In this document: one piece after another, positions 49-24,593 of the stretch | Numbering within the stretch: position 1 is the stretch's first letter | How the letters are laid out: the number at the start of each line of letters is the position of its first letter | DNA from: an uncultured virus (IMG/VR IMGVR_UViG_3300027743_000024) | Taxonomy: Duplodnaviria; Heunggongvirae; Uroviricota; Caudoviricetes | Reading direction: 5' to 3' (one strand) | IMG/VR virus record: IMGVR_UViG_3300027743_000024 | Length of the DNA: 24,885 nucleotides | Notes under the pieces: model-generated | What the model was told of the DNA's origin: nothing | Seen by the model: the letters and a program-made list of their open reading frames with translations, nothing else | Database searches by the model: none | Position numbers and translations under genes: made by a program

Positions 49-1230
49 ATGGAACAAAATTTAATATTAGACATTAATAGGATTTCTAAGAAACTTCTTG
101 TTAATGATATTTTCTATGGTTTGTTTTTGACAACAATAGAGAAAAAAGAATCAAAAGATGTGCCATTGGCTGCTGTTGGTCTTAATAAGAATACAATGGA
201 ATTCTGTTTAATAATTAATCCAGAAGAATGGTTTAAGCTTACAGATGAGATTAAGTTTGGTGTATTAAAACATGAGGCTATGCATTTAACAGCATTCCAT
301 TTAATAACTATGGATTTATATCCAAATGCTAAAATGGATAATATTGCTTGTGACATTGATATTAATCAAAAGATACCAAAGCAATATTTGCCAAAATGGG
401 GATGTTTCTTGGAAGAATTCCAAACAAAATATCCACTATTAAATTGGCAAGAAAATGCTGGTAGAGCTCATTATTACAAAGAACTTGGTAAATTATCTGA
501 AGAAGAAAAAGAGGAGATTGGTATTGATGAAAAATCACAGCATAAATGGGTTATAGTTGATGGTAAAGGTAAGCCATGTAATGGTGAATTAACTGATGCA
601 ATGAAAGATGCTATTAGAGTTCAGGTTGAACACACTATTGAGAATATAGCTGAAGAGATTCAAAAGTCTCAAGGTAATATTCCTGTAGAAATTGATAAAT
701 TGATTAAAGGATTTGTTAAGCCTAAGCCTAAGTTTAATTATGCCAAATATATCAAGAATTTTGTTGGTAATTCAACTAAATACATGATTGGATCAACTAA
801 GCTTAGAGAGAATCAAAGATTCCCAGGACAGCCTAAAATCATATTAAAACCAGTATCTAAAATGCTTGTATTGATTGATGAGTCAGGTTCTGTTTCAGAA
901 AAAGAATTGTATGATTTCTTAAATGAAATTCATCACCTATCTAAGAAAACTGATATAGAAATTAGACCATTTGACACTGCTGTAATGGATCCTGTTAAAT
1001 ATTCTGGTAAAGGATCATTTAAAAGAACTAATTGTGGTGGTACATCATTTACAGCTGCTGTTGATTTTTATAATAAAACCAAATACAATTCATGTATTAT
1101 ATTTACAGATGGATTTGCAGAAACTCCTCCAGTATGTAATAAGCGTTTATTATGGGTTATTAGTTCTAATGGTGATGAATCTCCTATAAAAGATCATGCA
1201 ACATGGATTAAAATCCCTCAAGAGAATTAG
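49..1230 (+). CDS. Metallopeptidase (HExxH) + VWA domain protein (DUF2201-like), partner of the MoxR-type ATPase
   Basis: N-terminal LKHEAMH zincin motif followed by NIACDIDIN. C-terminal VWA MIDAS motifs IDESGS, GGT and IFTDG. Confidence 0.88.
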   Translation: MEQNLILDINRISKKLLVNDIFYGLFLTTIEKKESKDVPLAAVGLNKNTMEFCLIINPEEWFKLTDEIKFGVLKHEAMHLTAFHLITMDLYPNAKMDNIACDIDINQKIPKQYLPKWGCFLEEFQTKYPLLNWQENAGRAHYYKELGKLSEEEKEEIGIDEKSQHKWVIVDGKGKPCNGELTDAMKDAIRVQVEHTIENIAEEIQKSQGNIPVEIDKLIKGFVKPKPKFNYAKYIKNFVGNSTKYMIGSTKLRENQRFPGQPKIILKPVSKMLVLIDESGSVSEKELYDFLNEIHHLSKKTDIEIRPFDTAVMDPVKYSGKGSFKRTNCGGTSFTAAVDFYNKTKYNSCIIFTDGFAETPPVCNKRLLWVISSNGDESPIKDHATWIKIPQEN

Positions 1231-1231
1231 G

Positions 1232-1247
1232 TGTCTTAGTTAAGACA
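1232..1247. promoter_or_regulatory. 16-bp near-perfect palindrome TGTCTTAGTTAAGACA, possible operator or parS-like site
   Basis: TGTCTTA-gt-TAAGACA inverted repeat in the short intergenic gap before the ParB-like gene; no U-tract follows. Confidence 0.35.
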
Positions 1248-1290
1248 TTGATTAAAATAAAATAACATAGTTATAAAAACAACTTAAAAC

Positions 1291-2019
1291 ATGAAAATTA
1301 CACAACATCCTATAATTGATATTAATGTATCAAAAGCTTTAGAATTGCCATTCAATAGACCTAAAATTGAGAAACAAATAAAAATCATAGGTCAATCTGT
1401 AGTTTCAGTAGGAATTCTTAGAACTCCTGTATTTGTAAAAACAAAAGCTATAACTGGTAGATATGAATTATATAGTCTTGATGGTCAGCATCTTATAGAA
1501 GCCTGCAAAAGACTTGATGTTAAAACTGTTAAAGGCATAGTTGTAGAAACAGATTCTATTAGTGAAATGGTAAAAATGATGTCATTACTTAATAATGTAA
1601 ACCAAAGATGGACTCTCATAGATTATGTTAATTCATATTGTGGTACAGGTAATGCTGACTTCTTTGCATTAAAAAACCATTCCATTACTAATGGATTTAC
1701 TATAGCTATATCAGCTAGTATTCTTAGTGGAACTAATGTTTCAGGTGCAGGGTGTAAAAGTATTAAGAATGGTACATTTAAAGTTAATGCTGTTGAGCAA
1801 GATGTTATTACACAAAATCTTATTGATGTATCTACATTGATTAATACAACTAATGCCAAATTTCATAGAGCATATCTTAATTTTTATAGATCACTTGGTA
1901 GCACTTATAATCATAAGAAAATGATAACTAAGATTCAAGCAAGCAAAGAGTTTGCTAAGTTACCACATGATCAAACTTATCTTTATGATTTAATTCACAA
2001 AACATATACAGGTAAATAA
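1291..2019 (+). CDS. ParB/Srx N-terminal (DGQHR-like) domain protein
   Basis: FNRP...GILRTPVFV...SLDGQHLIEACKRL fits the ParB-N pattern NR...G...PI.V...DGQHR..A, with R replaced by L. Confidence 0.7.
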   Translation: MKITQHPIIDINVSKALELPFNRPKIEKQIKIIGQSVVSVGILRTPVFVKTKAITGRYELYSLDGQHLIEACKRLDVKTVKGIVVETDSISEMVKMMSLLNNVNQRWTLIDYVNSYCGTGNADFFALKNHSITNGFTIAISASILSGTNVSGAGCKSIKNGTFKVNAVEQDVITQNLIDVSTLINTTNAKFHRAYLNFYRSLGSTYNHKKMITKIQASKEFAKLPHDQTYLYDLIHKTYTGK

Positions 2020-2020
2020 C

Positions 2021-2308
2021 ATGAGCGTTGACATAGAAGTAGAAAAACAAACTAATATAGATGAACTTATAAAAGAACTAATAGAACCTAGTAAGGCAAT
2101 TATATTATACAATGATGATATAAATACTTTTGAAAATGTCATAGACTGTTTGATTAAATATTGCAAACATAATAATGAGCAAGCAGAGCAATGTGCAATG
2201 CTTGTTCATTATAATGGTAAATGTGATGTAAAAAATGGTTCATTTGATGATTTACTTCCTATTTATACAGCATTATTAGATAATAAATTAAAAGTTATAA
2301 TAGAATGA
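2021..2308 (+). CDS. clpS: ATP-dependent Clp protease adaptor ClpS
   Basis: IILYNDDINTFENVIDCL...EQAEQCAMLVHYNGKCDVK; NDD and VH N-degron pocket residues present; resembles Bacteroidota ClpS. Confidence 0.93.
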   Translation: MSVDIEVEKQTNIDELIKELIEPSKAIILYNDDINTFENVIDCLIKYCKHNNEQAEQCAMLVHYNGKCDVKNGSFDDLLPIYTALLDNKLKVIIE

Positions 2309-2601
2309 GAAATAAATATGATGCTTATTATTATAATCCTAACAAAAAATTAATGAGTTCTAAATTTGTAATAAGTTCTAAGAATATGATTCTTAGAAAA
2401 TTAGATATGGATAGAAGAACAAGTATTTTATTGTATGATTTAGTTAAATTATTTATTAATGATTGCCATAGGTTTAAATGGGAAATAGATGATATTGAAT
2501 CATTTAAATCAATAATTAATGATTTAATTTATTCTCATGATAATGATAATTTTATTATTTGTATATTAATGATTAAAAATCTTAAAAGAAATGAAAAATA
2601 A
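2305..2601 (+). CDS. Hypothetical protein with C-terminal L-x-x-S-x-D-x-x-N motif
   Basis: ATGA overlap with clpS; contains NDLIYSHDNDNFIIC. Confidence 0.65.
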   Translation: MRNKYDAYYYNPNKKLMSSKFVISSKNMILRKLDMDRRTSILLYDLVKLFINDCHRFKWEIDDIESFKSIINDLIYSHDNDNFIICILMIKNLKRNEK

Positions 2602-2998
2602 AAATAAAGTTACTATTGAATCATTAGTTAATGTTATTGAATTATTTGATTCAGAAGATGAAGGCAATAAAGCTATTGCATATTGTTTATTAAATCAGTT
2701 TGATTGGAACACTTCATCTAAAAGACATTTGTTTTATTGTGAATTGTTTTGGTATGCATACACTGGGTGTTTTATTACTAACAAAGATGATTTATGCTAT
2801 AATCTTGAGAGAACATTTTCAAACAAGGTGTTAAAGAAATTTAAAGGATTTAGAAATTTAAGCAATAGATCACCAGAACCAATTATAGAAGGTCCTATTT
2901 ATTTAACAGATAATATGCAAGATAAAGCAAAAAGATTTTTAAAAAAGTATTTGAATTATGAAAAAAGTAAGTATTATTCAATAATTAATAATTTTTAA
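2591..2998 (+). CDS. Hypothetical protein with N-terminal L-x-x-S-x-D-x-x-N motif
   Basis: Overlaps the previous ORF; IELFDSEDEGNKAIAYCLL resembles segments of ORFs 6143 and 6951. Confidence 0.7.
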   Translation: MKNKNKVTIESLVNVIELFDSEDEGNKAIAYCLLNQFDWNTSSKRHLFYCELFWYAYTGCFITNKDDLCYNLERTFSNKVLKKFKGFRNLSNRSPEPIIEGPIYLTDNMQDKAKRFLKKYLNYEKSKYYSIINNF

Positions 2999-3002
2999 AT
3001 AT

Positions 3003-3569
3003 ATGATAACAGATTTAATAGCAAGACAAATAAGTTTTATCAAAAGCAAAGGTTATAGTGCTAGAGCGTATTCAAATTATGAGGTTAAAGTGACATTTAA
3101 CTTAGCATTGCCAATGTGGTGTAATGATCTTGACTTAATAACACAGCCTAATCATGCAATTCTATATGCCACAAATAGAAAAAATAATATTCCAAGGCAT
3201 TATGTTACATTTTTTAATAAAGATGAAGGTTATCCAGAAGTTAGTAACAATAAGTTTCTACAAATTAGTAGAATTTATAATATAAATGATTGGATTAAAT
3301 CTGGAGAAAACTATTTACATACATTAACCAATGATAGAGCTGATGTATTTAGAGAAATAGAATCTAATATTATATTAAAGAAAATTGGTGACCTAACTGG
3401 TCAATGGGATAGACTTACAAGTGGCAAGTTTAAGAATCCTGATCCTACATGTGATTCTAACTATGGAGCTTCTAAATTTTCTTCTAAATATTATGAGGGA
3501 GTTGTTGCAGAATTAGATTGCGATAAAGTGGTAGATCCAAGTGAATTAGTAGAACAAGTGATATTTTAA
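3003..3569 (+). CDS. Hypothetical protein
   Basis: 188-aa ORF tightly packed in the operon; no motif recognised. Confidence 0.7.
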   Translation: MITDLIARQISFIKSKGYSARAYSNYEVKVTFNLALPMWCNDLDLITQPNHAILYATNRKNNIPRHYVTFFNKDEGYPEVSNNKFLQISRIYNINDWIKSGENYLHTLTNDRADVFREIESNIILKKIGDLTGQWDRLTSGKFKNPDPTCDSNYGASKFSSKYYEGVVAELDCDKVVDPSELVEQVIF

Positions 3570-3597
3570 ATTAATAATTAATAATAAAAAAACAAAT

Positions 3598-4261
3598 ATG
3601 AGCAAACAAACACAACACAAACCTTCAGAGGTTTTGAATATTTTAAAAGATTTAATTGAAGCAAATGATAAACTTATGGCTAATGGACAATTGCCAGTAA
3701 GTGTGAGTATTATTGGTACTCACGGGATAGGTAAATCAACTATATGCAAGGAAGTTGCAAATGATTTAGGTCGTGGATTCTTCAAATTAAATTTAGCTCA
3801 ATTAACAGAACCAAGTGAGTTACAAGGTTTCTATTTAAAGGAGTTTAAATTGACAAAGATTGATGGTGATTTAACTAAAGAGTCTTGGGTAACTGAGAAT
3901 CTTATACCAAAATTTGTAGAAGATGGTTGGTCATATTCTACAGTTGTTAGAACAACATCATGTCCTCCAGACTGGGTTATTAACCTTCAACCTAATTCTA
4001 TTCTATGTCTAGATGATTTTAGTAGAGGTAATAGTTTGTTTTCACAAGCAGTTATGGAATTAGTTAATACTAATGAAATGATTGGTTGGGATTTGAAAGG
4101 TAAAAACATTCAGATTATCCTTAATGAGAATCCAGACAATGGTGAGTATAATGTATCATCTTCTGATGCTGCTCAAGGTGATAGGATGGCTAAGATTAAT
4201 ATGATATGGAATGCACAAGATTGGGCTGCTAGAGCAGAGAAAATAGGATTAGATGAAAGGT
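3598..4261 (+). CDS. MoxR-like AAA+ ATPase, exon 1 (spliced product predicted at 407 aa)
   Basis: Walker A GTHGIGKS, Walker B LCLDDFSR, sensor-1 LNENP, Arg finger DAAQGDR. The in-frame TAA at 4267 lies inside the intron. Confidence 0.88.
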
Positions 4262-4537
4262 TAAATTAATTAGCCGTTTTTAGTAGTAATACTAATTATT
4301 ATAAGTGGGCAAAAACGGTGAACCCTGAAATGGGAATACCGTGCTAAATTTAAAGAATAATATCTTTAAATCAGTGTAACGCATAGTAGATGAATCTCAT
4401 ATAAAGAGAATATAATTCTACCAAGAGTGTCCGCCAACCTATTAGGTTGAAAATATATGCTGAACTTACAAGAAGATGAATTGTAAGAACTAGAGGATAA
4501 AAAGCCTTTAGGGTAACAAAAGATTAAATTAAAATTA

Positions 4538-4554
4538 TTGGCATGATTTTTGCT
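4538..4554 (+). promoter_or_regulatory. Sigma-54-like -24/-12 promoter upstream of the homing endonuclease
   Basis: TTGGCATGATTTTTGCT versus consensus YTGGCACGNNNNTTGCW: one mismatch, exact spacing of GG(4540-41) and GC(4552-53). Confidence 0.55.
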
Positions 4555-4562
4555 ATAGATAA

Positions 4563-5501
4563 ATGATGAAGTTATTTCAAGATTACAAGAATTTTCCTAA
4601 AACTAGTGGTATTTATAAAATTACCACCTTACATAATAATGAATTTTATATTGGTTCTGCTTTATCTCTTAGAAAGAGAATGAAAGACCATATAAATGAT
4701 TTAAAAGGTAAGAGACACTTTGTCAACAGATTGCAAAGAAGTTTTGGTAAATATGGAGAATGTGATTTTACAGTGGAATTTTTATTCATTTCACCTAATA
4801 ACTTTAAATTAAATTCAGATAAACATAGAAAATTAGTTGTTTTAGAAGAAGTTCTAATTAATAAATTAGAAGCTAAATATAATACAATTAAGACTCCTAC
4901 AACTCAAATTAATAATCCTTCTACATCAAAAATTGTATATCAATATGCAATGAATGGAGAATTTATTAAAGAGTGGTGTAGTAGTATGGAAGTTCAAAGA
5001 ATATTAAATATTCAACCTCAAAACTCATTAAAAGATCTAAATAGATCTGCTGGTGGTTTTAGGTGGAGTAATACAAAATATACTAAACTTCCTAAATATA
5101 AGGCAAATCAAGGTAATTATTGTAGTAAGCAGATAAGTATATATGACTTATTTGGTACTTTAATAAAAACCTTTGATTCCATTACAGAATGCGCTAAAGA
5201 AATATTTCCTGATATTGAATTGAAGAAATCAATCCAAAATATTAGAAAATATAGTAAAGATAGCAGAGTATTGAATGGTTATAGATATGCTTTAGGTAAT
5301 GATTTAAAATTGGATAATTCTATTAATTTAAAACATAGAATCAATTTTATAGTATTACAATATGATTTAAAAATGAATTTTATAAATATATATGGTACAT
5401 TACAACTTGCTCAAAAGGCTACTAATGTAAAAAGTATATATGATAATTTATCTGGTAAAACTAAACAAGCAGGAGGCTTTGTTTGGCAAAAATTACAATA
5501 A
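4563..5501 (+). CDS. Intron-encoded GIY-YIG homing endonuclease with three NUMOD1-like repeats
   Basis: SGIYKI...FYIGSA..LRKRMKDH. Repeats VYQYAMNGEFIKEW, SIYDLFGTLIKTF and LQYDLKMNFINIY, ending in AGGFRW, NGYRY and AGGFVW. Start may be 4566. Confidence 0.93.
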   Translation: MMKLFQDYKNFPKTSGIYKITTLHNNEFYIGSALSLRKRMKDHINDLKGKRHFVNRLQRSFGKYGECDFTVEFLFISPNNFKLNSDKHRKLVVLEEVLINKLEAKYNTIKTPTTQINNPSTSKIVYQYAMNGEFIKEWCSSMEVQRILNIQPQNSLKDLNRSAGGFRWSNTKYTKLPKYKANQGNYCSKQISIYDLFGTLIKTFDSITECAKEIFPDIELKKSIQNIRKYSKDSRVLNGYRYALGNDLKLDNSINLKHRINFIVLQYDLKMNFINIYGTLQLAQKATNVKSIYDNLSGKTKQAGGFVWQKLQ

Positions 5502-5517
5502 TGATAATTAATCTCTG

Positions 5518-6077
5518 TGATTAATTTTGTTCTTTGGGCTCCTGAATTGCTTGAGGCTAAGAAATCTGAAGGCATATCAGCAAGTAACAATGTTAGTCCA
5601 CGTATGATGGATAAGTTCTTTGGTCTTGTGTCAACAATTGATGATTTGGAATCTAATTTAGATAAAATATCTACATTTGGTGATATGACAGTTGGTAAGG
5701 ATGTAACAAGTCAGTTGATTAACTTTGTTAATAAGAAGCTTGATAAATTGCCTTCTATTGATGATTTGATTAAGAAGTATGATGTTCCAACATCTAAGTC
5801 TCAATTAACTGCATGTTGTGGTGATAGTGAGAAAGATTCTGTAAACTGGAAATCTGCAACAGCTGCTATCCTCACTACAAGGATGTATAACTATATGAGA
5901 TATAATCAAGCTAGTATTACTAAAGATAATATTAGACAATATCTTGAATTAGTATTGCACCCAAGCTTTAGTGTTGATCAGAAATATCTAATGGTTAAAC
6001 AAACTATTAATATTTCTAATACATTTGCTATGGTGTTATCTGGTGATCCAAGATTCTTAAAATTCATGACAAAATAA
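5518..6077 (+). CDS. MoxR-like AAA+ ATPase, exon 2 (helical lid and C-terminal domain)
   Basis: INFVLWAPELL...VSPR (sensor-2-like) continues exon 1 in frame after splicing. The GTG 'start' at 5517 is the 3' splice junction. Confidence 0.85.
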
Positions 6078-6086
6078 TTATAAATT

Positions 6087-6127
6087 ATATGCGCATAAGT
6101 TGGAATTTCTCCTTCTTATGCGTATAT
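6087..6127. promoter_or_regulatory. Intergenic hairpin (13-bp stem), possible processing or regulatory site
   Basis: ATATGCGCATAAG(6087-99) pairs with CTTATGCGTATAT(6115-27) with one G.U; no U-tract follows. Confidence 0.55.
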
Positions 6128-6142
6128 TATAAACCCCTCATA

Positions 6143-6967
6143 ATGAAAATAGTAGAAACAGGAACAAACAAGTATATAGATCAACAACTATTTGATCATA
6201 TTAATTCAATATGGCTTAATTTTGATGTTGTAATTAATAATGATAGTAATCTTTTATTTGCAAAGAATACAACAGTTAATAGACTTATAACAGACTATTC
6301 AGGAACTGGAATTAGTAGAGTTATTAAGGTGGAAAAAGCTGATTATGTTGTTATAAACAGATTTGTATTAAGTTCATATCCACAATATTTTGATGGAGTT
6401 AACATAACAACAGATGATACAAAAGAAGTTGTTTATGGTATATACAACATGAGTGTTGAGGTTCAAGATGTAATTGAATTAATTTTAAATTTACATTTAA
6501 ATGGATCTAAAGCAATATTTGTAAATCAAAATAAATTAAATGAAAGATTGAACAATGGTTTTGTAATTGATAAAGAAAATTATATAACTATTAAAGAATT
6601 GGTTGACAGTGAACATACTGACAATCATATGCTTGCAGCTAATATGTTAATTCAAAGTGATTTAAAACAAAATTGGCAATGGATTCTTTATCTATATCAT
6701 AATTCTTTTTCAAAATTATCAAACTTTGATAATAAAAATATTATATATAATTATTTTTCAACATTAAATCTTGGAAATACATTAGGATCTTTTTGTAAAT
6801 CAATGGACTCATCATTATCTATTATTACAGATGAAGATGTTAAAATTAGAATGATACATATAGTTAAAGAAAAATTTGAAAGAAATATACGAAAATATTT
6901 TGATGAAATTGGAACAAAAAAGTTTAAATTAGATGATTTTAAAATAACATATGATGCTAGCAAATAG
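6143..6967 (+). CDS. Hypothetical protein, paralog of 6951-7781
   Basis: Likely start ATG 6143 (MKIVETG), downstream of the hairpin. Shares EKADYVVI, ELVDSEHTDNHMLA and the C-terminal KEKFE...KLDDFKITYD pattern with the next ORF. Confidence 0.75.
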   Translation: MKIVETGTNKYIDQQLFDHINSIWLNFDVVINNDSNLLFAKNTTVNRLITDYSGTGISRVIKVEKADYVVINRFVLSSYPQYFDGVNITTDDTKEVVYGIYNMSVEVQDVIELILNLHLNGSKAIFVNQNKLNERLNNGFVIDKENYITIKELVDSEHTDNHMLAANMLIQSDLKQNWQWILYLYHNSFSKLSNFDNKNIIYNYFSTLNLGNTLGSFCKSMDSSLSIITDEDVKIRMIHIVKEKFERNIRKYFDEIGTKKFKLDDFKITYDASK

Positions 6968-7781
6968 ACCAGAAAATAAAACACCAGATGAATATTGGCA
7001 TAAATATGATGCTATTGAATTAGATGCATTCTTTGATTCAATTAATTTTGAAACAGCTAGCATATCAAACATGTCTTTAAATTTAAGAGATAGTGGTGGT
7101 ATTTCTCAAGATAAATTAAGAGAAGCTGGCTTTAAGATTAAAAGAAATAAATTTGAAGCAGATATTATAGTTATTAGTGATATTAGATTATTAAACTATC
7201 GTTATTCTTATGATAATAAAGAATATGTTTTTCATGGTAGTATTGGAAAAAAAATTAATGAATTTATTGATGAAATTATATTTGATGAGCAAAATGCTAA
7301 GATTCCATGTAAATATATATTATTAAAAGATCTTTATAAGTATATTTATAAATACACTGGAGATTTTGATTTGTATAAATCATGTGATGAATTGTTTGAT
7401 TCTAATGATGATAATAACTCTAAAATGGCAATGGAATTTATTTCTAATGCAAATTGGACTGGTAATGAAATATATCTTAAGGAATTATTTAATAATTACT
7501 ATGACACTAGAATGAGAAGAAATCAATATAAGACATCAATATCTTTTAAGGGTTTTTTAAATTCATTAGATTTTGCTTATAAATATGTTAATTATTATCA
7601 AGCTGCACATTATGCTAAAGATTGTATTAATGATGAACATCACAATTTTGTTTATGATAAATTTAAAGAAAGATTTGAAGAATCATTGAAAGGATTGACT
7701 CAAAGTTATAAAATTAAAATAGACAAAATTGAATATTCAATTGATAAAAGAATAACTGATGATGATGAAGACACTGTATAA
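6951..7781 (+). CDS. Hypothetical protein, paralog of 6143-6967
   Basis: FEADIIVI, ELFDSNDDNNSKMA and KERFE...KIDKIEYSID occur in the same order and at similar spacing. Confidence 0.75.
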   Translation: MMLANRPENKTPDEYWHKYDAIELDAFFDSINFETASISNMSLNLRDSGGISQDKLREAGFKIKRNKFEADIIVISDIRLLNYRYSYDNKEYVFHGSIGKKINEFIDEIIFDEQNAKIPCKYILLKDLYKYIYKYTGDFDLYKSCDELFDSNDDNNSKMAMEFISNANWTGNEIYLKELFNNYYDTRMRRNQYKTSISFKGFLNSLDFAYKYVNYYQAAHYAKDCINDEHHNFVYDKFKERFEESLKGLTQSYKIKIDKIEYSIDKRITDDDEDTV

Positions 7782-8862: not shown

Positions 8863-9948
8863 ATGAGCAAAAGAGATGAAATACAAGAGCGCATCTCTGA
8901 TGAATTCATAGATGCAGGTTTTAAAGGAATAATACTTGCTGCTCCTAGAAGTGGGAAAATTAGAATTACACTTAATTGTCTTAATACAAAAGATAATGTC
9001 ATGATAGCTTACCCAGAAACTTCTATTAAAAACAGTTGGCAGACTGATATAAAGAAGTGGAAATTTAAAGGTAAAAAGGTCAAATATACAACATATATGT
9101 CATTTAAGAAATTAAAAGACAAATGTGATGTATTGGTATTAGACGAGGTTCATTTAATATCCTCAGCACAAATGAAATGTATAGCTGAATATATCAATAA
9201 ACATGATATAAGCAAGGTTATAGGCCTGACTGGCACATTGTCTGAAGATACAGAAAAGGATCTCTTAGATGTTCTAAAATTACGTGTTTTAGTTGAGTAT
9301 CCAATTGAAAAAGCTATTGAAGATGGTGTAATTACAGATTATAGAATAGAGGTTAGAAGTGTTGATTTATCAACTGATAGAAATATCAAAGTGAAGTGGA
9401 AGGGTGGAGAGTTTCTAACTTCTGAAAAAAGCAGTTTTGATTATATTAGTTCAAAGATAAATCAAGAGCAAAGTCCTATCAAAAGGAAGATGCTTAGATT
9501 GCAGAGAATGAATATGATTAAGAAGTCTAAGTCTAAAATTGAACTTACTAAAAAGATTATTAAAGAATCTGAAGATAAGAGAATTTTAGTATTCACTGGA
9601 CTAATAGATGTTGCTGATAGCCTTGGAATTGATAGTTATCATTCTAAGAGCACTAACAAGTCAACTGCAGATGATTTTATGTCTGGAATTACAAGCAAGC
9701 TTGCTGTTGTAAAACAATTAAATGCAGGAGTCACTTTTAAAAGCCTTAATACAGCAATTATCAATTTCTTTGATAGTAATGCTGAAAATATGGCGCAACG
9801 CATTTCAAGAATTACATGCATGGAATATGATACACCAAACAAGATTGCACATGTTATAATAGTTTGTAGTACAGAAGAACAAGAAAGGGTTTGGTTAAAT
9901 AAAGCATTGTCTTTTTTTGATCCAAACAAAATTAAATTCATAAACTAA
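8863..9948 (+). CDS. Superfamily 2 (DExH) helicase-like protein
   Basis: APRSGKIR Walker A-like, LDEVH, GLTGT motif III, LNAGVT motif V, QRISR motif VI-like. Confidence 0.85.
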   Translation: MSKRDEIQERISDEFIDAGFKGIILAAPRSGKIRITLNCLNTKDNVMIAYPETSIKNSWQTDIKKWKFKGKKVKYTTYMSFKKLKDKCDVLVLDEVHLISSAQMKCIAEYINKHDISKVIGLTGTLSEDTEKDLLDVLKLRVLVEYPIEKAIEDGVITDYRIEVRSVDLSTDRNIKVKWKGGEFLTSEKSSFDYISSKINQEQSPIKRKMLRLQRMNMIKKSKSKIELTKKIIKESEDKRILVFTGLIDVADSLGIDSYHSKSTNKSTADDFMSGITSKLAVVKQLNAGVTFKSLNTAIINFFDSNAENMAQRISRITCMEYDTPNKIAHVIIVCSTEEQERVWLNKALSFFDPNKIKFIN

Positions 9949-14649: not shown

Positions 14650-15037
14650 TCCTGATGGACCATGGGTTTATAAATCATATAGAGATGTTCTTCAAGCAAT
14701 GATGTGGGAAGAAGCTAAATATGAACTATATTTAATAACAAAGGATGACACTGGTGAGCCTTTAGAAATTGCAGCACAATTAGGCATTAACCCAGCAAAT
14801 GTTTTTTATGGGATTATTGATAATGATGCAATTGTAGTACAATTAAATGATAGTAAAATAAAAATATATTTAACACCAATAATGGAGGTTTTTACATTAA
14901 CTAATGAAACAAGTGTTGATACAGTTGCAATATTAGTTGATAGTAAACAGGATATATATAACATACAGCCAAAATGGTTTCAACAACTAAAGTTTTGGGT
15001 AAATAGATTATATAGTGGGCAAGAAAAAGAGTGTTAA
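14624..15037 (+). CDS. HAD-superfamily-like protein, possibly catalytically degenerate
   Basis: ISFDPDG motif I-like and LYLITK motif II-like; no clear acidic motif IV. Confidence 0.5.
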   Translation: MERLRISFDPDGPWVYKSYRDVLQAMMWEEAKYELYLITKDDTGEPLEIAAQLGINPANVFYGIIDNDAIVVQLNDSKIKIYLTPIMEVFTLTNETSVDTVAILVDSKQDIYNIQPKWFQQLKFWVNRLYSGQEKEC

Positions 15038-15443
15038 GAAAGTTCCAGTGGCAAAACCAAGGAATAGTGGTACAATGACAGAAAGTGCATTTTGGAGCTT
15101 TATAAGGAGTGCTCTTAGACAAAAGAGTAGATGGTGGAAACCAATTAGTGAGTGTAAGAGCTTGTCTAAAAGACCATATAAAGGGCCCAATAAAAGACAG
15201 AAGTTTGAGTATCAATGTTTTGAATGTAAGAAATGGCATCCTGACAAGAATATTGCTATTGATCATATTAAGCCTGCTGGAAAATTAAATTGTGCAGAAG
15301 ACTTACCTCTATTTGTAACAAAACTATTTTGTGAGATTGACAACTTACAAGTGTTATGTGAACAATGTCATTTGGTAAAAACTGCATTAGACAAAGAAAG
15401 CATTAAACAATCAAAATTAATTGAAAATGGGAAAACAGACTAA
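15015..15443 (+). CDS. HNH endonuclease
   Basis: YQCFEC...IDHIKP...NLQVLCEQCH..KT. Confidence 0.88.
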   Translation: MGKKKSVKKVPVAKPRNSGTMTESAFWSFIRSALRQKSRWWKPISECKSLSKRPYKGPNKRQKFEYQCFECKKWHPDKNIAIDHIKPAGKLNCAEDLPLFVTKLFCEIDNLQVLCEQCHLVKTALDKESIKQSKLIENGKTD

Positions 15444-15888
15444 AATATTTATTATTTCTTTTGTATTAACATTTGTTAGTTTATCTTTTGTTCAAGATAT
15501 TGCTTGTAATGATGTTAGTTCAAATTATAATTTAAAAGCTGTTGATACAACTGCTTCTGCAGATGGTTTTGATTTTAATCATAAATCAGTTTATAATATG
15601 ATTCTTATTGCTGAAATTGATCATCCTAAAATTGTTCTTAAGCAATCTATATGTGAGACAGGTCATTTTAAATCAAATGTATTGAAGAAGAATAACAACT
15701 TATTTGGTTTCCATAATGGAAAAGAATATTTGAAATTTGATTCATTATTTGATTGCTGTATTTATTATAAGAATTGGCAAGACAGACATTATGGTGGAGG
15801 TGATTATTATTTATTTTTAGATAAATTTAAATATGCTGCTGATACAAATTACGTTAACACATTAAAAAAAATAAGGATAAATGTATAA
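15427..15888 (+). CDS. Glucosaminidase (GH73-like) peptidoglycan hydrolase with N-terminal hydrophobic segment
   Basis: QSICETGHF, NNLFG and YAADTNY motifs; IFIISFVLTFVSLSF signal or TM segment. ATG 15427 preferred over TTG 15421. Confidence 0.8.
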   Translation: MGKQTKIFIISFVLTFVSLSFVQDIACNDVSSNYNLKAVDTTASADGFDFNHKSVYNMILIAEIDHPKIVLKQSICETGHFKSNVLKKNNNLFGFHNGKEYLKFDSLFDCCIYYKNWQDRHYGGGDYYLFLDKFKYAADTNYVNTLKKIRINV

Positions 15889-17834: not shown

Positions 17835-18383
17835 ATGATTGAATGTAAACTAGAAGATTTTGAAAATTACAGGAAAGATCTTTTTAAATATGCTTGTAGT
17901 TTATTAAAAACTAGAGGTTTTTGTGCAAAAGATGGTGAATTAAAATGTTTTGGTGAAGATTTAGTACAACAAACTTATTTGCAGCTCCATAGTTGGGGCA
18001 CAAGTAAGTTTGTAAGTGAAAATCATCTAAAGAATTTCTTAACTGGTGTTGTATATAGAGAGTACCTTCAGCTTGTTGATATAAACAGAAGAGGTGCACA
18101 ATATATATTACTTAAGAAAGATGTTTTTGATAAAATGTATTCTGAAGAGTTTAAGCAAATTGATATAAGAAAACATCATAAACCAACACAAGAATTCTTT
18201 GATTGTGTAAGTTCTTTTAAAAAAGAGCTTGATGATAGAGAGGTTCTTATATTAAATGGTTTGCTTGATGGTTATAGTCAAAGAGAAATATCTGAAAAAA
18301 TACATTTAAGCATTACAATAGTTCATACAACTGTTAAAAAAATTAGAGATAAATATAAAAAACATGAAAGCACAAATTGTTAA
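17835..18383 (+). CDS. ECF-like sigma-70 family factor
   Basis: Region-2-like EDLVQQTYL and region-4 HTH LDDREVLIL...GYSQREISEKIHLSITIV. Confidence 0.78.
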   Translation: MIECKLEDFENYRKDLFKYACSLLKTRGFCAKDGELKCFGEDLVQQTYLQLHSWGTSKFVSENHLKNFLTGVVYREYLQLVDINRRGAQYILLKKDVFDKMYSEEFKQIDIRKHHKPTQEFFDCVSSFKKELDDREVLILNGLLDGYSQREISEKIHLSITIVHTTVKKIRDKYKKHESTNC

Positions 18384-18849
18384 ATGTTCAAGTGACACAT
18401 TCTGGTATTCAAATATTTCTTTACCAATTGAAATTGAAGTTGAATGGCACAGAGGTTTTTATAAAATTATTGATGGAGAGTATTCTGGTAAATTTGTAGC
18501 TAATTCAGATTTTATTAATGATGAAGACTATGAAACAAGAGTATTTGGTTCAGGTGCAAAGCGTGATGGAGATGACAATAAACCATATGTTCATAATCTA
18601 CAAGGGTATACCAGACTTAGGTTTGGTTACCTAACTAGAATGGGAGCAAATAAATATGGTGATGGTAATTTCCTTAAAGGAATGCCTAAAGAGGATTCAA
18701 TTAAGAGCCTTGATAGACATTTAGCTAAATACCTTGATGGCGATATGTCAGAAGATCATCTTGCAGCAATTATTTTTAATGTTCAGCTTATAATGCTAGA
18801 AGAAAAGAAAGAAGGGATGCAAGCTGACCATTACTTCTTAATACAATAA
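18364..18849 (+). CDS. dATP/dGTP diphosphohydrolase domain protein (DUF5664)
   Basis: FGSGAKRD, GANKYGDGNFLKGMP, SLDRHL, EDHLAAIIFN. Confidence 0.85.
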   Translation: MKAQIVKCSSDTFWYSNISLPIEIEVEWHRGFYKIIDGEYSGKFVANSDFINDEDYETRVFGSGAKRDGDDNKPYVHNLQGYTRLRFGYLTRMGANKYGDGNFLKGMPKEDSIKSLDRHLAKYLDGDMSEDHLAAIIFNVQLIMLEEKKEGMQADHYFLIQ

Positions 18850-20915: not shown

Positions 20916-23900
20916 TTAGTTGTTTAGTTCTGGTAAAATTTCATCAGATATAATTTTTTGAATCTGACCTAATGGAGCTAATCCTGGAACAACTGCTGGA
21001 AGATTTTTAAACCAGAATTCATTGTTACCTTTTAAGCTTCCTTTCTTAATTTTATAATCACCTAAATAAAAAGCATGAGGTACATTCATTACAACATTTT
21101 TAACATCTGCCATTAATTTAGCTATTGGAAATGCATTTTTTGCCATATTTGTTAAATTTGATGGTTGATAAAAATATAATAAATCCTGGCTCATTCTATT
21201 AAGCAATGTTAATTGAAGCTTTATAAATGGGTTTCTCATTCTTTTTTTTCTTTCATCATCATCACCTTTTAGTCCAGCAGATATAAGCAATATAGTTCCA
21301 ATCATAATTAATTCAGCTATATTCTTTCTCATATTATATATCTCTACAGCTGTCATGTTCCCTTTTGCTAAAGCTTTTTCAGAGCTTATAATTGGAAGAA
21401 ATATATTAGAAAATGTGTTATTAACACTACCAGACATAAATATATTTCTTGATGCAGATCTATATCTACCTTCTGTTGCAGATTGCAATCTATCATCCCA
21501 TTCTTTTGCATCACCAAATCTTGCTTCAATTGCTGCAGGTATCCATTTTTTAAATTGAATTGCGGCTCTAAATAAAACCATTTGTTGCAATGTAGATGCT
21601 TCTCTCTGAGAATACCTACCATGTATTTGTGCATTTAACTTTTGAATTTTATTTGATAATTCAGAAGATTCTTTTTCTGTGATTGCATCACCTTTAGCTG
21701 TATTTGTACCATCTGCATTCATATATCCCTCATGAATTAACATTGCAAGCATTGTTCTTGATTGTAAATAAAGCTCTCCTCTTTTTTGCATTATATACAT
21801 CTTTTCAAGCATCTTTGCAGATGAAATCTTTTTTTTATCTGCTGTTAAATTTTCTCCAAGATCATAATCAGCTAACTCTTGCAAAGGGTTTAATTTTATT
21901 AACCAACTATGCATTAATGAACTTTTATCTGAATTTGTATAACTAATCTGTCTAAAAAATATATTACTTGCAGAATGTAATTCACTAAATGTAAAATGCT
22001 TTCCACCTACTGCTTCAATAATGTTTGACATGTCTCCAAACATAACATTGGCAATTGCAGTTATTGGAGACAATCCAATTCTTAATAAGGAGTTTAATTT
22101 AAGGCCTAAATCTACTAATGCCTCAATTCTAATTTGTTTATATCCTATTTGATTTCCATCTTTATCATATATTTTTAAAAACTTAAGAGGTATTGGCTTC
22201 ATTTCTTCTTTTTTCATTTCACCCTTAAGTTGCATATCTATGACAATTTGTGTCATTTTAAAAGCATTACTATTTTCACCAAATACTTTTCCTTTACCAT
22301 TTGAAGATATAAGTTCTCTAGGAACAACTTCTCCGTTTTCATTTTTTATATATTTTATTTGTTCTTGCAAAAGTCTAGTTTCTGGCAATGCAGCTGATAA
22401 TTCAGCATGATTATTTGCATATGCTGCAAACTCAAGCAATCCACTTCCAAGATCTCTAGACTTTTTATCAGAATCAATTTTCTGTCTAAACATAACAGGT
22501 ACAGCATCAGCTAATAATTCTTCATTAGATGAATAACTGTCAAATAAAAAGTTTTCTGTTGGTATAACTCTCTTTAAATCTGAAACTAAATCTGACTTAA
22601 CTTTATTAATCATATAAAATTTACCAACTTTATATGGTAAATTATATTCTGCATTTGCAAGAACCTCTTGATAGAAATTATAAAAATGTAAAAGTTCTGG
22701 AGTGTTGTTTATTTTATCAAATGCTGGATTTGTTTTACCATTTTTAGTATACTTTCTTGTAAGCTCAAGTGTACCAAATGCATTTTCTTGTATAAATAAA
22801 TCATAAACTTCTTGCAATTTCATTCCATTGTCTTTACCCCAAGCTGAAAGCTTGTCAACCTCTAACTGAACAACTTCTTCTAGTTCTTTGTTTTTAACAG
22901 ATGCTTTGTTTTGAGCATTCTTAATAACATAACCTATTGTTTTAACAAGTTGACTCATTGAGTCAAGTAATGAACCAAAATTCTTTGCAGACCATCTAAT
23001 ATCTTTAGTATCTTTATCTATAGACTTTTCTGTTATAGGAGTTTTAGATGTATTGTATTTATTAGCTGTATTTAGATTATGTTTTACAATGTGTGGATAA
23101 AGATCCTTTCTCAGGCTTCTTATTCTATCAGTTATATTAATTTCTGCATTACCACCAAAGTCTTCAAATGTATTTAATATATCAAATGCACTAACAATGT
23201 TTTCCATTGTATATTCATCTATTTCATCTGGAAAATTCTTTATAAAGTTTTCAACCCAATCAAGATGTTCTTTAGCCATAGCTATGTATTCATCTCTATC
23301 TTGGTCTTCATTTGCCTGATTAAATCTTGCTATTAAATTATTTAATTCAGTTTCTAATATAGTATATTGATCAGTGCCTGGAGAAACTTTAAATAGATTC
23401 TTTTTTAATGTATTTATTCTTCTAATAAAAAACACATATTGTTCTTTAAATGCAGGTTCAGGCTTATCCCTTTTTTTCTCTTTAGATTCATCTTCTTTGC
23501 TTGCAAATGTTTCATAAACATCTTCTTGCATTGAATTATAGACAGCTTCAGCTCCTTCTTTTTGATCTTCAATAACATTTGATGCAACTGAAAAAGCTTG
23601 TTCATATAATGAATTTGTTCTACCTATATTAACAAGGCTTAATATATAGTCAAATATCTCTTGAAATAAATTATCATATTTAGATATATTTTTAGATGCT
23701 TCTATATCTTTAAGTTTCTTAATTAATCTAGGATCAGTAAATAATGCTACAATAAATTCATCAACATTTGTTAATCCATAGAAATCTTCTTTATCTAATT
23801 TAGATATTGCATATTCATATAGTTTTTGAAAATCTTTAGAAACTGTTGAGCTATCTCTTAATTTATTATGTGTTAGACTGTGTAATATCTCATGCAAAAT

Positions 23901-24593
23901 AACAGTTTCTACACCACTAGCAAAGTTTGCATTTTTGGCAATATATATAGTATTTGTACTTCTATCATAATATGCATTTGCTTTATTCTTTGATTCATAA
24001 TTAACAATATTTCCATCTTTCATATTATAATTATCTACATCTTCTAAAACAATTTTTAAGTTGTTATATTTAGAATATGTAATTAATTTAGCAGCAAGTT
24101 TTGCTAGTATGTGACCAGATGAGCCTATTTTTTTAAGTATATCTACAGCTGTAGTTTCATTTGATTCAGCAAAATACTTTTCTTTTATCAAAGGATCTTT
24201 ATAACTTTTTTTCTTTTCTTTATTAAATAGTTTAGTTTGTGGAATTCCTGGAACTAGTTCTACTCTGTAAGCATATTCTGTTTCAATGATTTTTATCCAA
24301 TCAATGTCTTGCAATGTAAGCTCTTTATCTAAAGCATCAAATGCTGCTTTATTCTTTTGATAAGCTTTACCACCACGCAGATTGCCTGCTATTGACTTTT
24401 CAGTCATTATCTTTGGTATTGTATAGAACATTTTCCCATTAGATGCTGTGAATCTATTTACAGATATTAAACCAGCATCCTGAAGCTTATACATCACATC
24501 ATAATATTGTGTTGCTAATCCTTCACTTCCGTTATTAAGTTTCTTAAGAAGCTTATATAACTCACTTTTCTTATTTGGACATGATAAAGCCAT
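20916..24593 (-). CDS. Large putative virion cargo or ejected protein with zincin-like metallopeptidase domain
   Basis: 1225 aa; ANAYYD..TNTIYI...ILHEILH...NVDEFI zincin pattern, mostly helical elsewhere; terminal gene of the opposite-strand block. Confidence 0.7.
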   Translation of the reverse strand: MALSCPNKKSELYKLLKKLNNGSEGLATQYYDVMYKLQDAGLISVNRFTASNGKMFYTIPKIMTEKSIAGNLRGGKAYQKNKAAFDALDKELTLQDIDWIKIIETEYAYRVELVPGIPQTKLFNKEKKKSYKDPLIKEKYFAESNETTAVDILKKIGSSGHILAKLAAKLITYSKYNNLKIVLEDVDNYNMKDGNIVNYESKNKANAYYDRSTNTIYIAKNANFASGVETVILHEILHSLTHNKLRDSSTVSKDFQKLYEYAISKLDKEDFYGLTNVDEFIVALFTDPRLIKKLKDIEASKNISKYDNLFQEIFDYILSLVNIGRTNSLYEQAFSVASNVIEDQKEGAEAVYNSMQEDVYETFASKEDESKEKKRDKPEPAFKEQYVFFIRRINTLKKNLFKVSPGTDQYTILETELNNLIARFNQANEDQDRDEYIAMAKEHLDWVENFIKNFPDEIDEYTMENIVSAFDILNTFEDFGGNAEINITDRIRSLRKDLYPHIVKHNLNTANKYNTSKTPITEKSIDKDTKDIRWSAKNFGSLLDSMSQLVKTIGYVIKNAQNKASVKNKELEEVVQLEVDKLSAWGKDNGMKLQEVYDLFIQENAFGTLELTRKYTKNGKTNPAFDKINNTPELLHFYNFYQEVLANAEYNLPYKVGKFYMINKVKSDLVSDLKRVIPTENFLFDSYSSNEELLADAVPVMFRQKIDSDKKSRDLGSGLLEFAAYANNHAELSAALPETRLLQEQIKYIKNENGEVVPRELISSNGKGKVFGENSNAFKMTQIVIDMQLKGEMKKEEMKPIPLKFLKIYDKDGNQIGYKQIRIEALVDLGLKLNSLLRIGLSPITAIANVMFGDMSNIIEAVGGKHFTFSELHSASNIFFRQISYTNSDKSSLMHSWLIKLNPLQELADYDLGENLTADKKKISSAKMLEKMYIMQKRGELYLQSRTMLAMLIHEGYMNADGTNTAKGDAITEKESSELSNKIQKLNAQIHGRYSQREASTLQQMVLFRAAIQFKKWIPAAIEARFGDAKEWDDRLQSATEGRYRSASRNIFMSGSVNNTFSNIFLPIISSEKALAKGNMTAVEIYNMRKNIAELIMIGTILLISAGLKGDDDERKKRMRNPFIKLQLTLLNRMSQDLLYFYQPSNLTNMAKNAFPIAKLMADVKNVVMNVPHAFYLGDYKIKKGSLKGNNEFWFKNLPAVVPGLAPLGQIQKIISDEILPELNN

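Follow-up and report, generated by a model that had tools for sequence, protein, structure and literature searches.

The window analysed in this work is a 24,885-nucleotide stretch of DNA from an uncultured virus of the class Caudoviricetes (IMG/VR record IMGVR_UViG_3300027743_000024). It is AT-rich (~28% G+C), and a single co-oriented, tightly packed gene block runs from base 49 to ~20.7 kb. The head of this block, at positions 49–7781, is a cluster in which every gene lies on the + strand and either overlaps its neighbour or is separated from it by no more than ~60 nt. A sequence-only reading of the window had described here a HExxH-VWA protein, a ClpS, a MoxR-type ATPase and four proteins sharing a motif, and each of these lies where it was placed and on the + strand; a ParB-like gene (1291–2019) and a gene for a 188-residue protein (3003–3569), which lie among them, were missing from its gene list. 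The conserved core of the cluster is four genes, encoding a zincin-VWA protein, an AAA_5 ATPase and two tandem paralogs. The pairing of a MoxR-type ATPase with a zincin-VWA protein is the known part; the new part is the linked paralogs, together with a motif family found only around the pair. The analysis established the gene content and synteny of the cluster, the paralogy of the two tandem proteins, the exclusivity of the motif, an intron in the ATPase gene, and the accessory status and origin of the ClpS.

The first gene of the cluster (49–1230, + strand) encodes a COG3864-type protein in which a zincin-like (HExxH) metallopeptidase is joined to a VWA domain. Its product matched the Pfam families DUF2201_N (putative metallopeptidase, PF13203; 30.7 bits versus a cut-off of 23.2) and DUF2201 (VWA-like, PF09967; 35.3 bits versus a cut-off of 26.4) in this N-to-C order, and phrog_1314 over residues 10–389 (E = 1.9e-47). 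Residues H75, E76 and H79 of the HExxH motif, which we take to be catalytic, and D277, S279, S281, T332 and D354, which presumably form the metal ion-dependent adhesion site (MIDAS; DxSxS...T...D), were invariant in all 12 aligned relatives. The ATPase is encoded by two exons on the + strand, 3598–4261 and 5518–6077, within open reading frames (ORFs) at 3598–4269 and 5517–6077. The first of these ORFs matched Pfam AAA_5 (29.1 bits versus a cut-off of 22) and positions 26–188 of the 356 positions of phrog_1297, and the Walker A motif (GxxGxGK[ST]) is invariant. We describe the protein as MoxR/midasin-like. The bpMoxR model reached 19.8 bits, under its cut-off of 27, an NCBIfam scan of the ATPase gave no MoxR match, and its best solved-structure relatives by sequence, among the matches listed, were midasin AAA domains (E = 8.7e-16); RavA and CbbQ were absent from the best 60 Protein Data Bank (PDB) sequence matches. 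Searching phage records by tblastn with both ATPase halves returned no match at E = 1e-5.

Scanning IMG/VR with the VWA protein and with an alignment of the ATPase yielded 28 loci, several of which are two views of one contig; loci are cited below by number where they need to be told apart. In all relatives found, the gene order was the VWA gene, a spacer, the ATPase gene, paralog A and paralog B. The VWA gene lay upstream of the ATPase gene in 18 of 18 contigs that cover the spacer, and both paralogs stood behind the ATPase gene in all 16 distinct contigs with enough downstream sequence. An independent scan from paralog B returned 22 loci, four of which start too close to the gene to judge; in each of the 18 with upstream sequence the order was again ATPase, A, B. 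This linkage holds while the ligase gene, the helicase gene and a DnaB-to-primase block change sides between contigs. One relative in this set, seen as both L005 and L017, is a single contig of 89,726 bases in which the VWA gene is cut off at one end, its remaining part standing at the beginning, and this contig is probably complete, circularly closed or terminally redundant, at ~90 kb.

Paralog A (6143–6967, + strand; 274 residues) is read from the ATG at 6143, the start used by its relatives, within an ORF that opens at 6089, and paralog B (6951–7781, + strand; 276 residues) follows it. Alignment of the two families with hhalign indicated that they are paralogous (probability 76%, E = 2.3e-5, 218 columns). 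Neither protein had a Pfam match. A paralog A profile found 65 representatives among 1.84 billion proteins; a Pfam scan of 25 of its distant relatives detected no VMAP, iSTAND, FtsH or beta-propeller domain and gave only three unrelated matches, none of them informative, and the ESM Atlas gave no usable match for this protein. Paralog B had 115 homologs in a set of 5.8 billion proteins, nearly all from metagenome assemblies; all were unnamed or called 'hypothetical protein', with a Pfam family in none. PADLOC, run on nine proteins, reported no defence family. The AlphaFold2 (AF2) model of paralog B (mean predicted local distance difference test score, pLDDT, 89.9; predicted template modelling score 0.79) has an N-terminal alpha/beta domain followed by a helical-repeat domain that holds the motif. 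Residues 37–132 gave weak BRCT-type matches (3qvg_B, Z 4.9, root-mean-square deviation 2.5, 69 residues aligned; 3ii6_Y, Z 4.4; 9i04_C, Z 4.4), and residues 135–213 weak HEAT/ARM/TOG/MIF4G matches with Z of 4.2–5.7, a range common for helical segments. Foldseek found nothing at E ≤ 0.001 when the model was compared with the PDB, and a weak match to the Sir4 H-BRCT domain (probability 0.6, E = 0.1). Judged from the model, the BRCT-like and helical-repeat resemblances appear too weak to indicate family membership. A complex prediction for the VWA protein with both paralogs (score 0.00, mark 0.32) gave no answer and counts neither way.

Over 38 residues the two paralog families can be aligned gap-free, and this stretch, at residues ~150–187 of paralog A, is the shared motif. 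Its pattern may be read as helix, turn, helix, with a third helix in the large proteins. A 38-column hidden Markov model (HMM) built from the two large families only recovered all four motif proteins of the window, with E-values of 5e-20, 4e-18, 0.15 and 0.23 among the 13,503 ORFs (1.11 Mb, with reversed-sequence decoys) of the control set. All 80 matches at E ≤ 1 fell in VWA/ATPase loci (408 kb), and all were on the strand of the module; there were none in 68 ClpS-bearing loci lacking the module (705 kb), and none among 13,503 reversed decoys. A shorter motif model gave the same picture against the same controls, with 82 of 82 matches in VWA/ATPase loci. The linkage of the motif family to the MoxR-VWA pair is thus stronger than it had first seemed. 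These searches support a motif family that is real and tied to the VWA-ATPase pair, and it is this that we regard as new.

The two large members of the family are clear, and relatives confirm the family as a whole; of the four members claimed by the sequence-only reading, the two small ORFs of the window are borderline when taken alone. The first (2305–2601, + strand; 98 residues), whose start overlaps the stop codon of clpS, carries the motif at its C-terminus. It aligned with the family of the ORF at 6143 at E = 0.048 by hhalign, and it was found by the motif HMM at E = 0.032 (3,711 ORFs) and by the short model at E = 0.023 in the 13,503 ORFs, with no decoys. The second (2591–2998, + strand; 135 residues) carries the motif near its N-terminus and aligned with the family of the ORF at 6951 at E = 0.016, the motif HMM giving E = 0.02 among 3,711 ORFs and 0.15 among 13,503. 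Relative to L001, the ratio of non-synonymous to synonymous substitution rates (dN/dS) for the second ORF was 0.38. In relatives, small ORFs on the + strand share ~20 residues from the beginning of the motif, in most cases C-terminally. Those whose position was determined fill the spacer between the VWA and ATPase genes in L001, L003, the L004 group, L011, L019 and L024; elsewhere they stand just before the VWA gene (L036) or between the ATPase gene and paralog A (L012, L036). The spacer itself can be empty or reach 5 kb. Of the 18 contigs that cover it completely, five have no gene in it, with at most 26 nt between the VWA gene and the ATPase gene. At the other extreme, the 5-kb spacer of L036 is an array of motif ORFs with clpS in mid-array, and this contig holds 13 motif ORFs in total, some of them upstream of the VWA gene.

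The spacer of the window also holds a ParB-like gene (1291–2019, + strand; phrog_12305, E = 1e-11) and, directly behind it, clpS (2021–2308, + strand). The ParB-like gene is absent from L001, where clpS directly follows the VWA gene, and it is an accessory insertion relative to that contig. The clpS product matched Pfam ClpS (PF02617) with 58.3 bits versus a cut-off of 23, and the best NCBIfam ClpS equivalog with 37 bits, which does not reach the cut-off of 117. Its NDD and H positions align with those of Escherichia coli ClpS and were invariant in five of five phage copies; we take these residues (N34, D35 and H66 in E. coli) to form the pocket that holds the N-terminal amino group of the substrate. 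The nearest cellular relatives are almost all from Bacteroidota, with named Flavobacterium isolates 49–56% identical. In two Flavobacterium genomes clpS stands behind prmA, and both contain a frame of ~850 residues that is ClpA/C-like (787 bits, short of the ClpA cut-off, 993); a third Bacteroidota genome gave only partial ClpA-type matches of ≤409 bits.

The sequence-only reading had treated ClpS as an integral part of the system, and this was not supported. Among the 18 contigs with a complete VWA-ATPase spacer only three contain clpS, and one more contig starts inside the gene. A survey with a ClpS alignment found 73 viral loci, of which 68 lack the ATPase; the five that have it, four of them with the VWA gene as well, all belong to the clade of the window. 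A homolog of the superfamily 2 (SF2) helicase lay upstream of clpS in 56 of the 73 loci, within 500 nt in 53, and ParB-like homologs occurred in 18, upstream of helicase and clpS. Pfam scans of six helicase-type loci showed ResIII/Helicase_C and then ClpS in five, the sixth (L053) being a ClpS without helicase; no DUF2201 was found in any of the six (AAA_5 matches were not looked at). In 50,697 phage records of INPHARED, tblastn detected ClpS in three, all of them huge uncultured phages, and in the two of these that were examined there was no VWA or MoxR gene within 8 kb of ClpS. Because clpS is optional in the spacers and linked to a helicase elsewhere, we conclude that it is not core, and that it is host-derived cargo that landed in a variable spacer. 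The sequence-only reading had named a lack of linkage to MoxR-VWA in relatives as what would speak against it, and for clpS this is largely the case; the motif genes are linked. Phage-encoded ClpS is itself already in print for jumbo phages, in the available text of PMC7824862 and PMC6102473. The copies described here share with those proteins, and with the ClpS of ClpAP, the Pfam ClpS domain and the conserved NDD and H positions; they differ from the jumbo-phage proteins in belonging to mid-sized phages and, in most viral loci, in being coupled to an SF2 helicase. A literature search found no mention of a phage ClpS-SF2 helicase pairing and nothing on ClpS with MoxR-vWA in phages. The helicase-clpS pairing, often with a ParB-like gene in front, was seen across ClpS loci L037–L105; the counterparts of its two genes in the window lie at 8863–9948 and 2021–2308.

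The last gene before the ATPase encodes a 188-residue protein (3003–3569, + strand) and lies directly upstream of the ATPase gene wherever it is present (the window, L001, L010, L011, L012, L024, L025 and L036). We found only close relatives of this protein, and no Pfam, PHROG, NCBIfam or PADLOC match; the ESM Atlas returned only scores of 0.83–0.84. Its dN/dS relative to L001 was 0.22. The AF2 model (pLDDT 75.7) has a confident alpha/beta core at residues 1–143 and a disordered tail at 144–188, and its fold resembles only weakly (Z 5.8) that of type III secretion chaperone/YbjN-like proteins. The tail is partly acidic, and its last residue is Phe in eight of eight sequences. In this it is reminiscent of the tips at the C-termini of bacterial single-stranded DNA-binding protein (SSB) and of T7 gp2.5. 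We rejected the SSB assignment, as the modelled core is not an oligonucleotide/oligosaccharide-binding (OB) fold and there was no SSB among the fold matches.

The ATPase of the sequence-only reading is present, as an AAA_5 protein, and it is one gene split by an intron (4262–5517), with the ORF at 5517–6077 as its C-terminal half. In L001, whose VWA protein is 97% identical to that of the window, a single uninterrupted ORF spans both 3598–4269 and 5517–6077; the gene is also uninterrupted in L002, L004, L010 and others. Only one joint restores the L001 reading (GLDERL|INFVLW), with exon 1 ending at U4261 and exon 2 beginning at 5518. The joined ORF encodes 407 residues, 406 of them identical to L001. 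The intron is 1256 nt long, on the + strand, and ends in G, the preceding exon ending in U. A focused Rfam search (371 nt) matched its core (~4262–4521) to the full Intron_gpI model (RF00028) at 4253–4487 (24 bits, E = 3.5e-4; the gathering score, 50, was not reached). Its 3' part contains an ORF (4563–5501, + strand) for a homing endonuclease with Pfam GIY-YIG (35 bits) and NUMOD1 (34.2 bits) domains, assigned to phrog_7168 (homing endonuclease). By blastn, 4275–4521 matched 59 phage records, and in the best 20 of these the match lay under unrelated genes, among them those for capsid, terminase and tape measure, or in sequence without annotation, a distribution to be expected of a mobile intron core. 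L027, with an ATPase 65% identical, carries an intron core at the same codon (81% mean column identity), with changes on both sides of stems when inspected by eye and a 59%-identical endonuclease behind it. The site of insertion is the most conserved block of the ATPase protein. Rfam returned no group I match for the L027 copy or for an insertion in L003, and the four run contigs with the sequence (two labelled RNA, probably DNA) showed the intron-bearing allele only and no joined form. From these comparisons the ATPase gene has, by all appearances, acquired a mobile group I intron that carries a GIY-YIG homing endonuclease, and splicing is predicted. In its U/G splice ends, its intron-less allele in a close relative, its weak Rfam match and its resemblance to the cores in the 59 phage records it is like other introns of this kind; it differs from them in that the endonuclease ORF comes after the whole core, not in an internal loop, and in scoring below the Rfam gathering threshold.

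Two further sites in the pair are also occupied in relatives. In L004 (8858–10001), and also in L005–L007, L015, L018, L020 and L028, an insert of ~1.1 kb interrupts the VWA gene between residues 72 and 73, immediately ahead of the HExxH motif; the insert holds a 278-residue ORF with two LAGLIDADG-like motifs, found by eye, and gives a group I Rfam match of 31 bits. The third site, at residues ~145–162 of the ATPase, holds an endonuclease-bearing insert in L003 (9771–10494) and a 1122-nt insert in the contig of a relative (window 4032/4078; runs X21 and X22). The insertion of introns or endonucleases at three places in this gene pair shows strong conservation of both genes.

Downstream of the cluster, the window encodes an ATP-dependent DNA ligase, an SF2 helicase, a DnaB-like helicase, a Sak4-like protein, a primase, an HNH endonuclease, a 5'-3' exonuclease, a sigma-like regulator, a dATP/dGTP diphosphohydrolase domain, a polymerase exonuclease subunit and a phosphoesterase. 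With a ligase, helicases, a primase and exonucleases behind it, the cluster thus heads a replication or early-type module. No tRNA was found in the window, and a whole-window Rfam scan gave nothing near a gathering score. The diphosphohydrolase sequence is the N-terminal domain of that enzyme in an ORF at 18364–18849 (PF18909, 43.8 bits), an enzyme known from phages replacing adenine by 2-aminoadenine. At 15015–15888, within the replication block, two ORFs overlap each other, one for the HNH endonuclease (phrog_1985) and one for a protein with a glucosaminidase domain; the HNH ORF overlaps the preceding ORF too. A 1225-residue ORF on the − strand (20916–24593), with no PHROG or Pfam match, lies at the point where strand and GC skew both change. 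Flavobacterium siphophages encode a polymerase exonuclease subunit with 50% identity to that of the window, the SF2 helicase matched only 29 Flavobacterium psychrophilum phages of 88–90 kb, and the runs with window sequence are mostly freshwater and sediment metagenomes. The host is therefore probably a Flavobacterium-type member of the Bacteroidota, and the virus probably a freshwater phage of ~80–95 kb; the Bacteroidota host guessed earlier agrees with these matches and with the relatives of the ClpS.

Phage records with a homolog of the VWA protein, at 22–27% identity, number 123; N4-like phages, AR9/PBS1 and the Alteromonas AD45 phages are among them. In each of the three cultured-phage records examined, those of SP-058 (an N4-like Salmonella phage), Bacillus AR9 and Alteromonas AD45-P1, an ATPase annotated as MoxR-like or AAA adjoins the VWA gene, so that the pair, which are neighbours in all the relatives, is conserved as the sequence-only reading had held. 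The pair stands behind an annotated early promoter in AR9 and adjoins a dUTPase and a replication initiation protein in SP-058, and in all three loci there was no annotated ClpS within 4 kb of it. We compared the cluster with the phage MoxR and metallopeptidase-vWA pair (COG0714 and COG3864; PHROGs 1297 and 1314) as known from N4-like Schitoviridae, Bacillus AR9/PBS1, Alteromonas AD45 and group 2.2 jumbo phages. A PF13203 and PF09967 protein beside an AAA_5-type ATPase is common to both; here, at that low identity, the VWA gene comes first and is followed by a variable spacer, and the ATPase and VWA genes are intron-invaded. Compared with the N4-like, AR9 and AD45 pairs, the present clade also has two extra conserved paralogs and the motif family. 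The motif was absent from the N4-like, AR9 and AD45 loci, and the extended module is thus limited to one clade.

Bacterial MoxR-vWA ternary conflict systems with effector-associated domains, described by Kaur, Burroughs, Iyer and Aravind in 2020 (PMC7159879), offer the closest comparison for this extended arrangement. In the available text of that source, the constant component and the proteins of adjacent genes share small helical domains that are thought to couple homotypically. As described there, those systems resemble the phage cluster in combining MoxR, vWA and a constant third component, and in having a small, non-enzymatic, mostly helical module in several copies, both in the constant component and in adjacent genes. 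They differ in that the third component here has no VMAP, iSTAND, FtsH-type, beta-propeller or other Pfam family, in that the motif partners here are tiny, phage-encoded and have no recognisable effector domain, and in that the motif lies inside the constant proteins, not at their ends. The likeness would accordingly be one of functional analogy only, not of membership.

Our favoured explanation, which we judge evenly poised between right and wrong once its mechanism is included, is a conserved four-gene core with a hypervariable slot for motif proteins and a separate clpS cargo. The region would be the start of the phage replication or early-gene block. The ATPase and the VWA protein would act as a chaperone/cofactor pair, as in MoxR-VWA pairs, with the MIDAS site holding a client that the fused peptidase might cut. 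The two paralogs, both built of an alpha/beta domain at the N-terminus and a helical-repeat domain, would be a constant third component, and the shared motif would couple the variable small proteins to them by like-with-like contacts, comparable to those of effector-associated domains. Phages would fill the slot between the VWA and ATPase genes with small motif proteins and, in a minority, also with host-derived clpS and the 188-residue gene; ClpS, as separate cargo, could redirect a host Clp unfoldase on its own. Every physical interaction in this scheme, the client and the timing are points that we infer. A more specific version would make the cluster a phage-borne counterpart of the ternary systems, a VWA/ATPase/scaffold hub for remodelling and cleavage into which the motif plugs different small effectors or target-binders, drawn from an expandable and quickly changing set of as many as 13 per locus, for host takeover or counter-defence, with clpS in some phages passing hub products or targets to the host Clp unfoldase; it seems to us unlikely as a whole.

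Several observations weigh against the favoured explanation. The small proteins would be dispensable for the pair, as the spacer is empty in 5 of 18 relatives, and the extended module appears confined to one clade. Taken alone, the motif in the two small ORFs of the window is borderline (E = 0.02–0.23), and the ORF at 2305–2601 has a dN/dS of 1.46 relative to L001, on few changes (3 synonymous and 22 non-synonymous). The motif positions also resemble the core residues of a helical hairpin, so that partial duplication could explain the motif without any docking. The link between the paralogs and the ATPase is one of synteny, and the fold matches obtained from the models are all weak (Z < 6); the BRCT-like match and the ligase adjacency of the paralogs would also be consistent with a part in replication or repair that has no connection with MoxR-VWA. 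Finally, the Walker B motif of the ATPase (residues 138–143) reads LDD, invariant in three aligned sequences. D-E is the usual form in AAA+ proteins, and the ATPase of the window may be slow or regulated.

Many of these points come together in the rival explanation that fares best, in which the system does not extend beyond the cooperation of the ATPase with the VWA protein. The paralogs would then serve as scaffolds in replication or repair, the small motif ORFs would be pieces of the paralogs that were duplicated and evolve fast, and the genes for ClpS, the ParB-like protein and the 188-residue protein would be accessory ones that entered a recombination hot spot independently. The weak BRCT-type matches, the replication context, the range of the spacer from nothing to 5 kb, the dN/dS above 1 of one small ORF, and introns or homing endonucleases at three sites of two genes, which amount to heavy recombination traffic, all agree with it. 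However, it does not account for paralogs that stay with the ATPase where ligase and helicase move away (L024, L011, L012 and L014), or for the lack of any motif ORF in 705 kb of other phage DNA. The small ORFs are in frame, on one strand and often overlap the stop codons of their neighbours, and dN/dS is 0.22–0.38 in two of the three small or unassigned spacer ORFs tested. We consider this explanation improbable, though with an appreciable chance of being correct.

A role of the pair as a virion-assembly chaperone, folding and trimming structural proteins beside neighbours that have nothing to do with it, we regard as distinctly unlikely. Iyer et al. in 2021 described the MoxR and metallopeptidase-vWA pair in jumbo phages and proposed such a role; in the available text of that source (PMC7824862), virion assembly is proposed for jumbo phages of group 2.2 and shown for the Acidianus two-tailed virus's tail, and the same domain pair is present in the window. 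Here, however, the pair stands among same-strand replication genes and not structural genes, the early promoter in AR9 and the dUTPase and replication initiation protein in SP-058 point the same way, and the strict linkage of the paralogs and the motif family would be left unexplained. Least probable is the degradation pipeline of the sequence-only reading, in which the peptidase cuts host proteins, ClpS delivers the new N-termini to host Clp and the motif proteins serve as adaptors: although all its parts lie in one co-oriented cluster, with a motif ORF overlapping or abutting clpS, in the window, L001, L011, L024 and L036, the ClpS retains its NDD and H positions, and the Flavobacterium genomes searched carry both clpS and a ClpA/C-like unfoldase, its main support is lost with clpS found to be optional in the spacer and placed behind a helicase elsewhere, with the N4-like, AR9 and AD45 pairs free of annotated ClpS nearby, and with the ClpS genes of huge phages, three records in all, free of VWA or MoxR neighbours where these were sought.

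Two consequences follow for the biology of these phages. Bacteroidota-type phage ClpS is common in mid-sized environmental phages, usually beside a replication helicase, and this coupling points to N-degron targeting in phage replication rather than to a MoxR pathway. As for the favoured four-gene core, pairs of MoxR with a VWA-peptidase occur in 123 phage records, yet the available text of PMC7824862 offers only a proposed role for them. The present clade provides handles on that role, in the form of two strictly linked partners and a motif that marks candidate clients or adaptors, and with these the function of the pair becomes directly testable.

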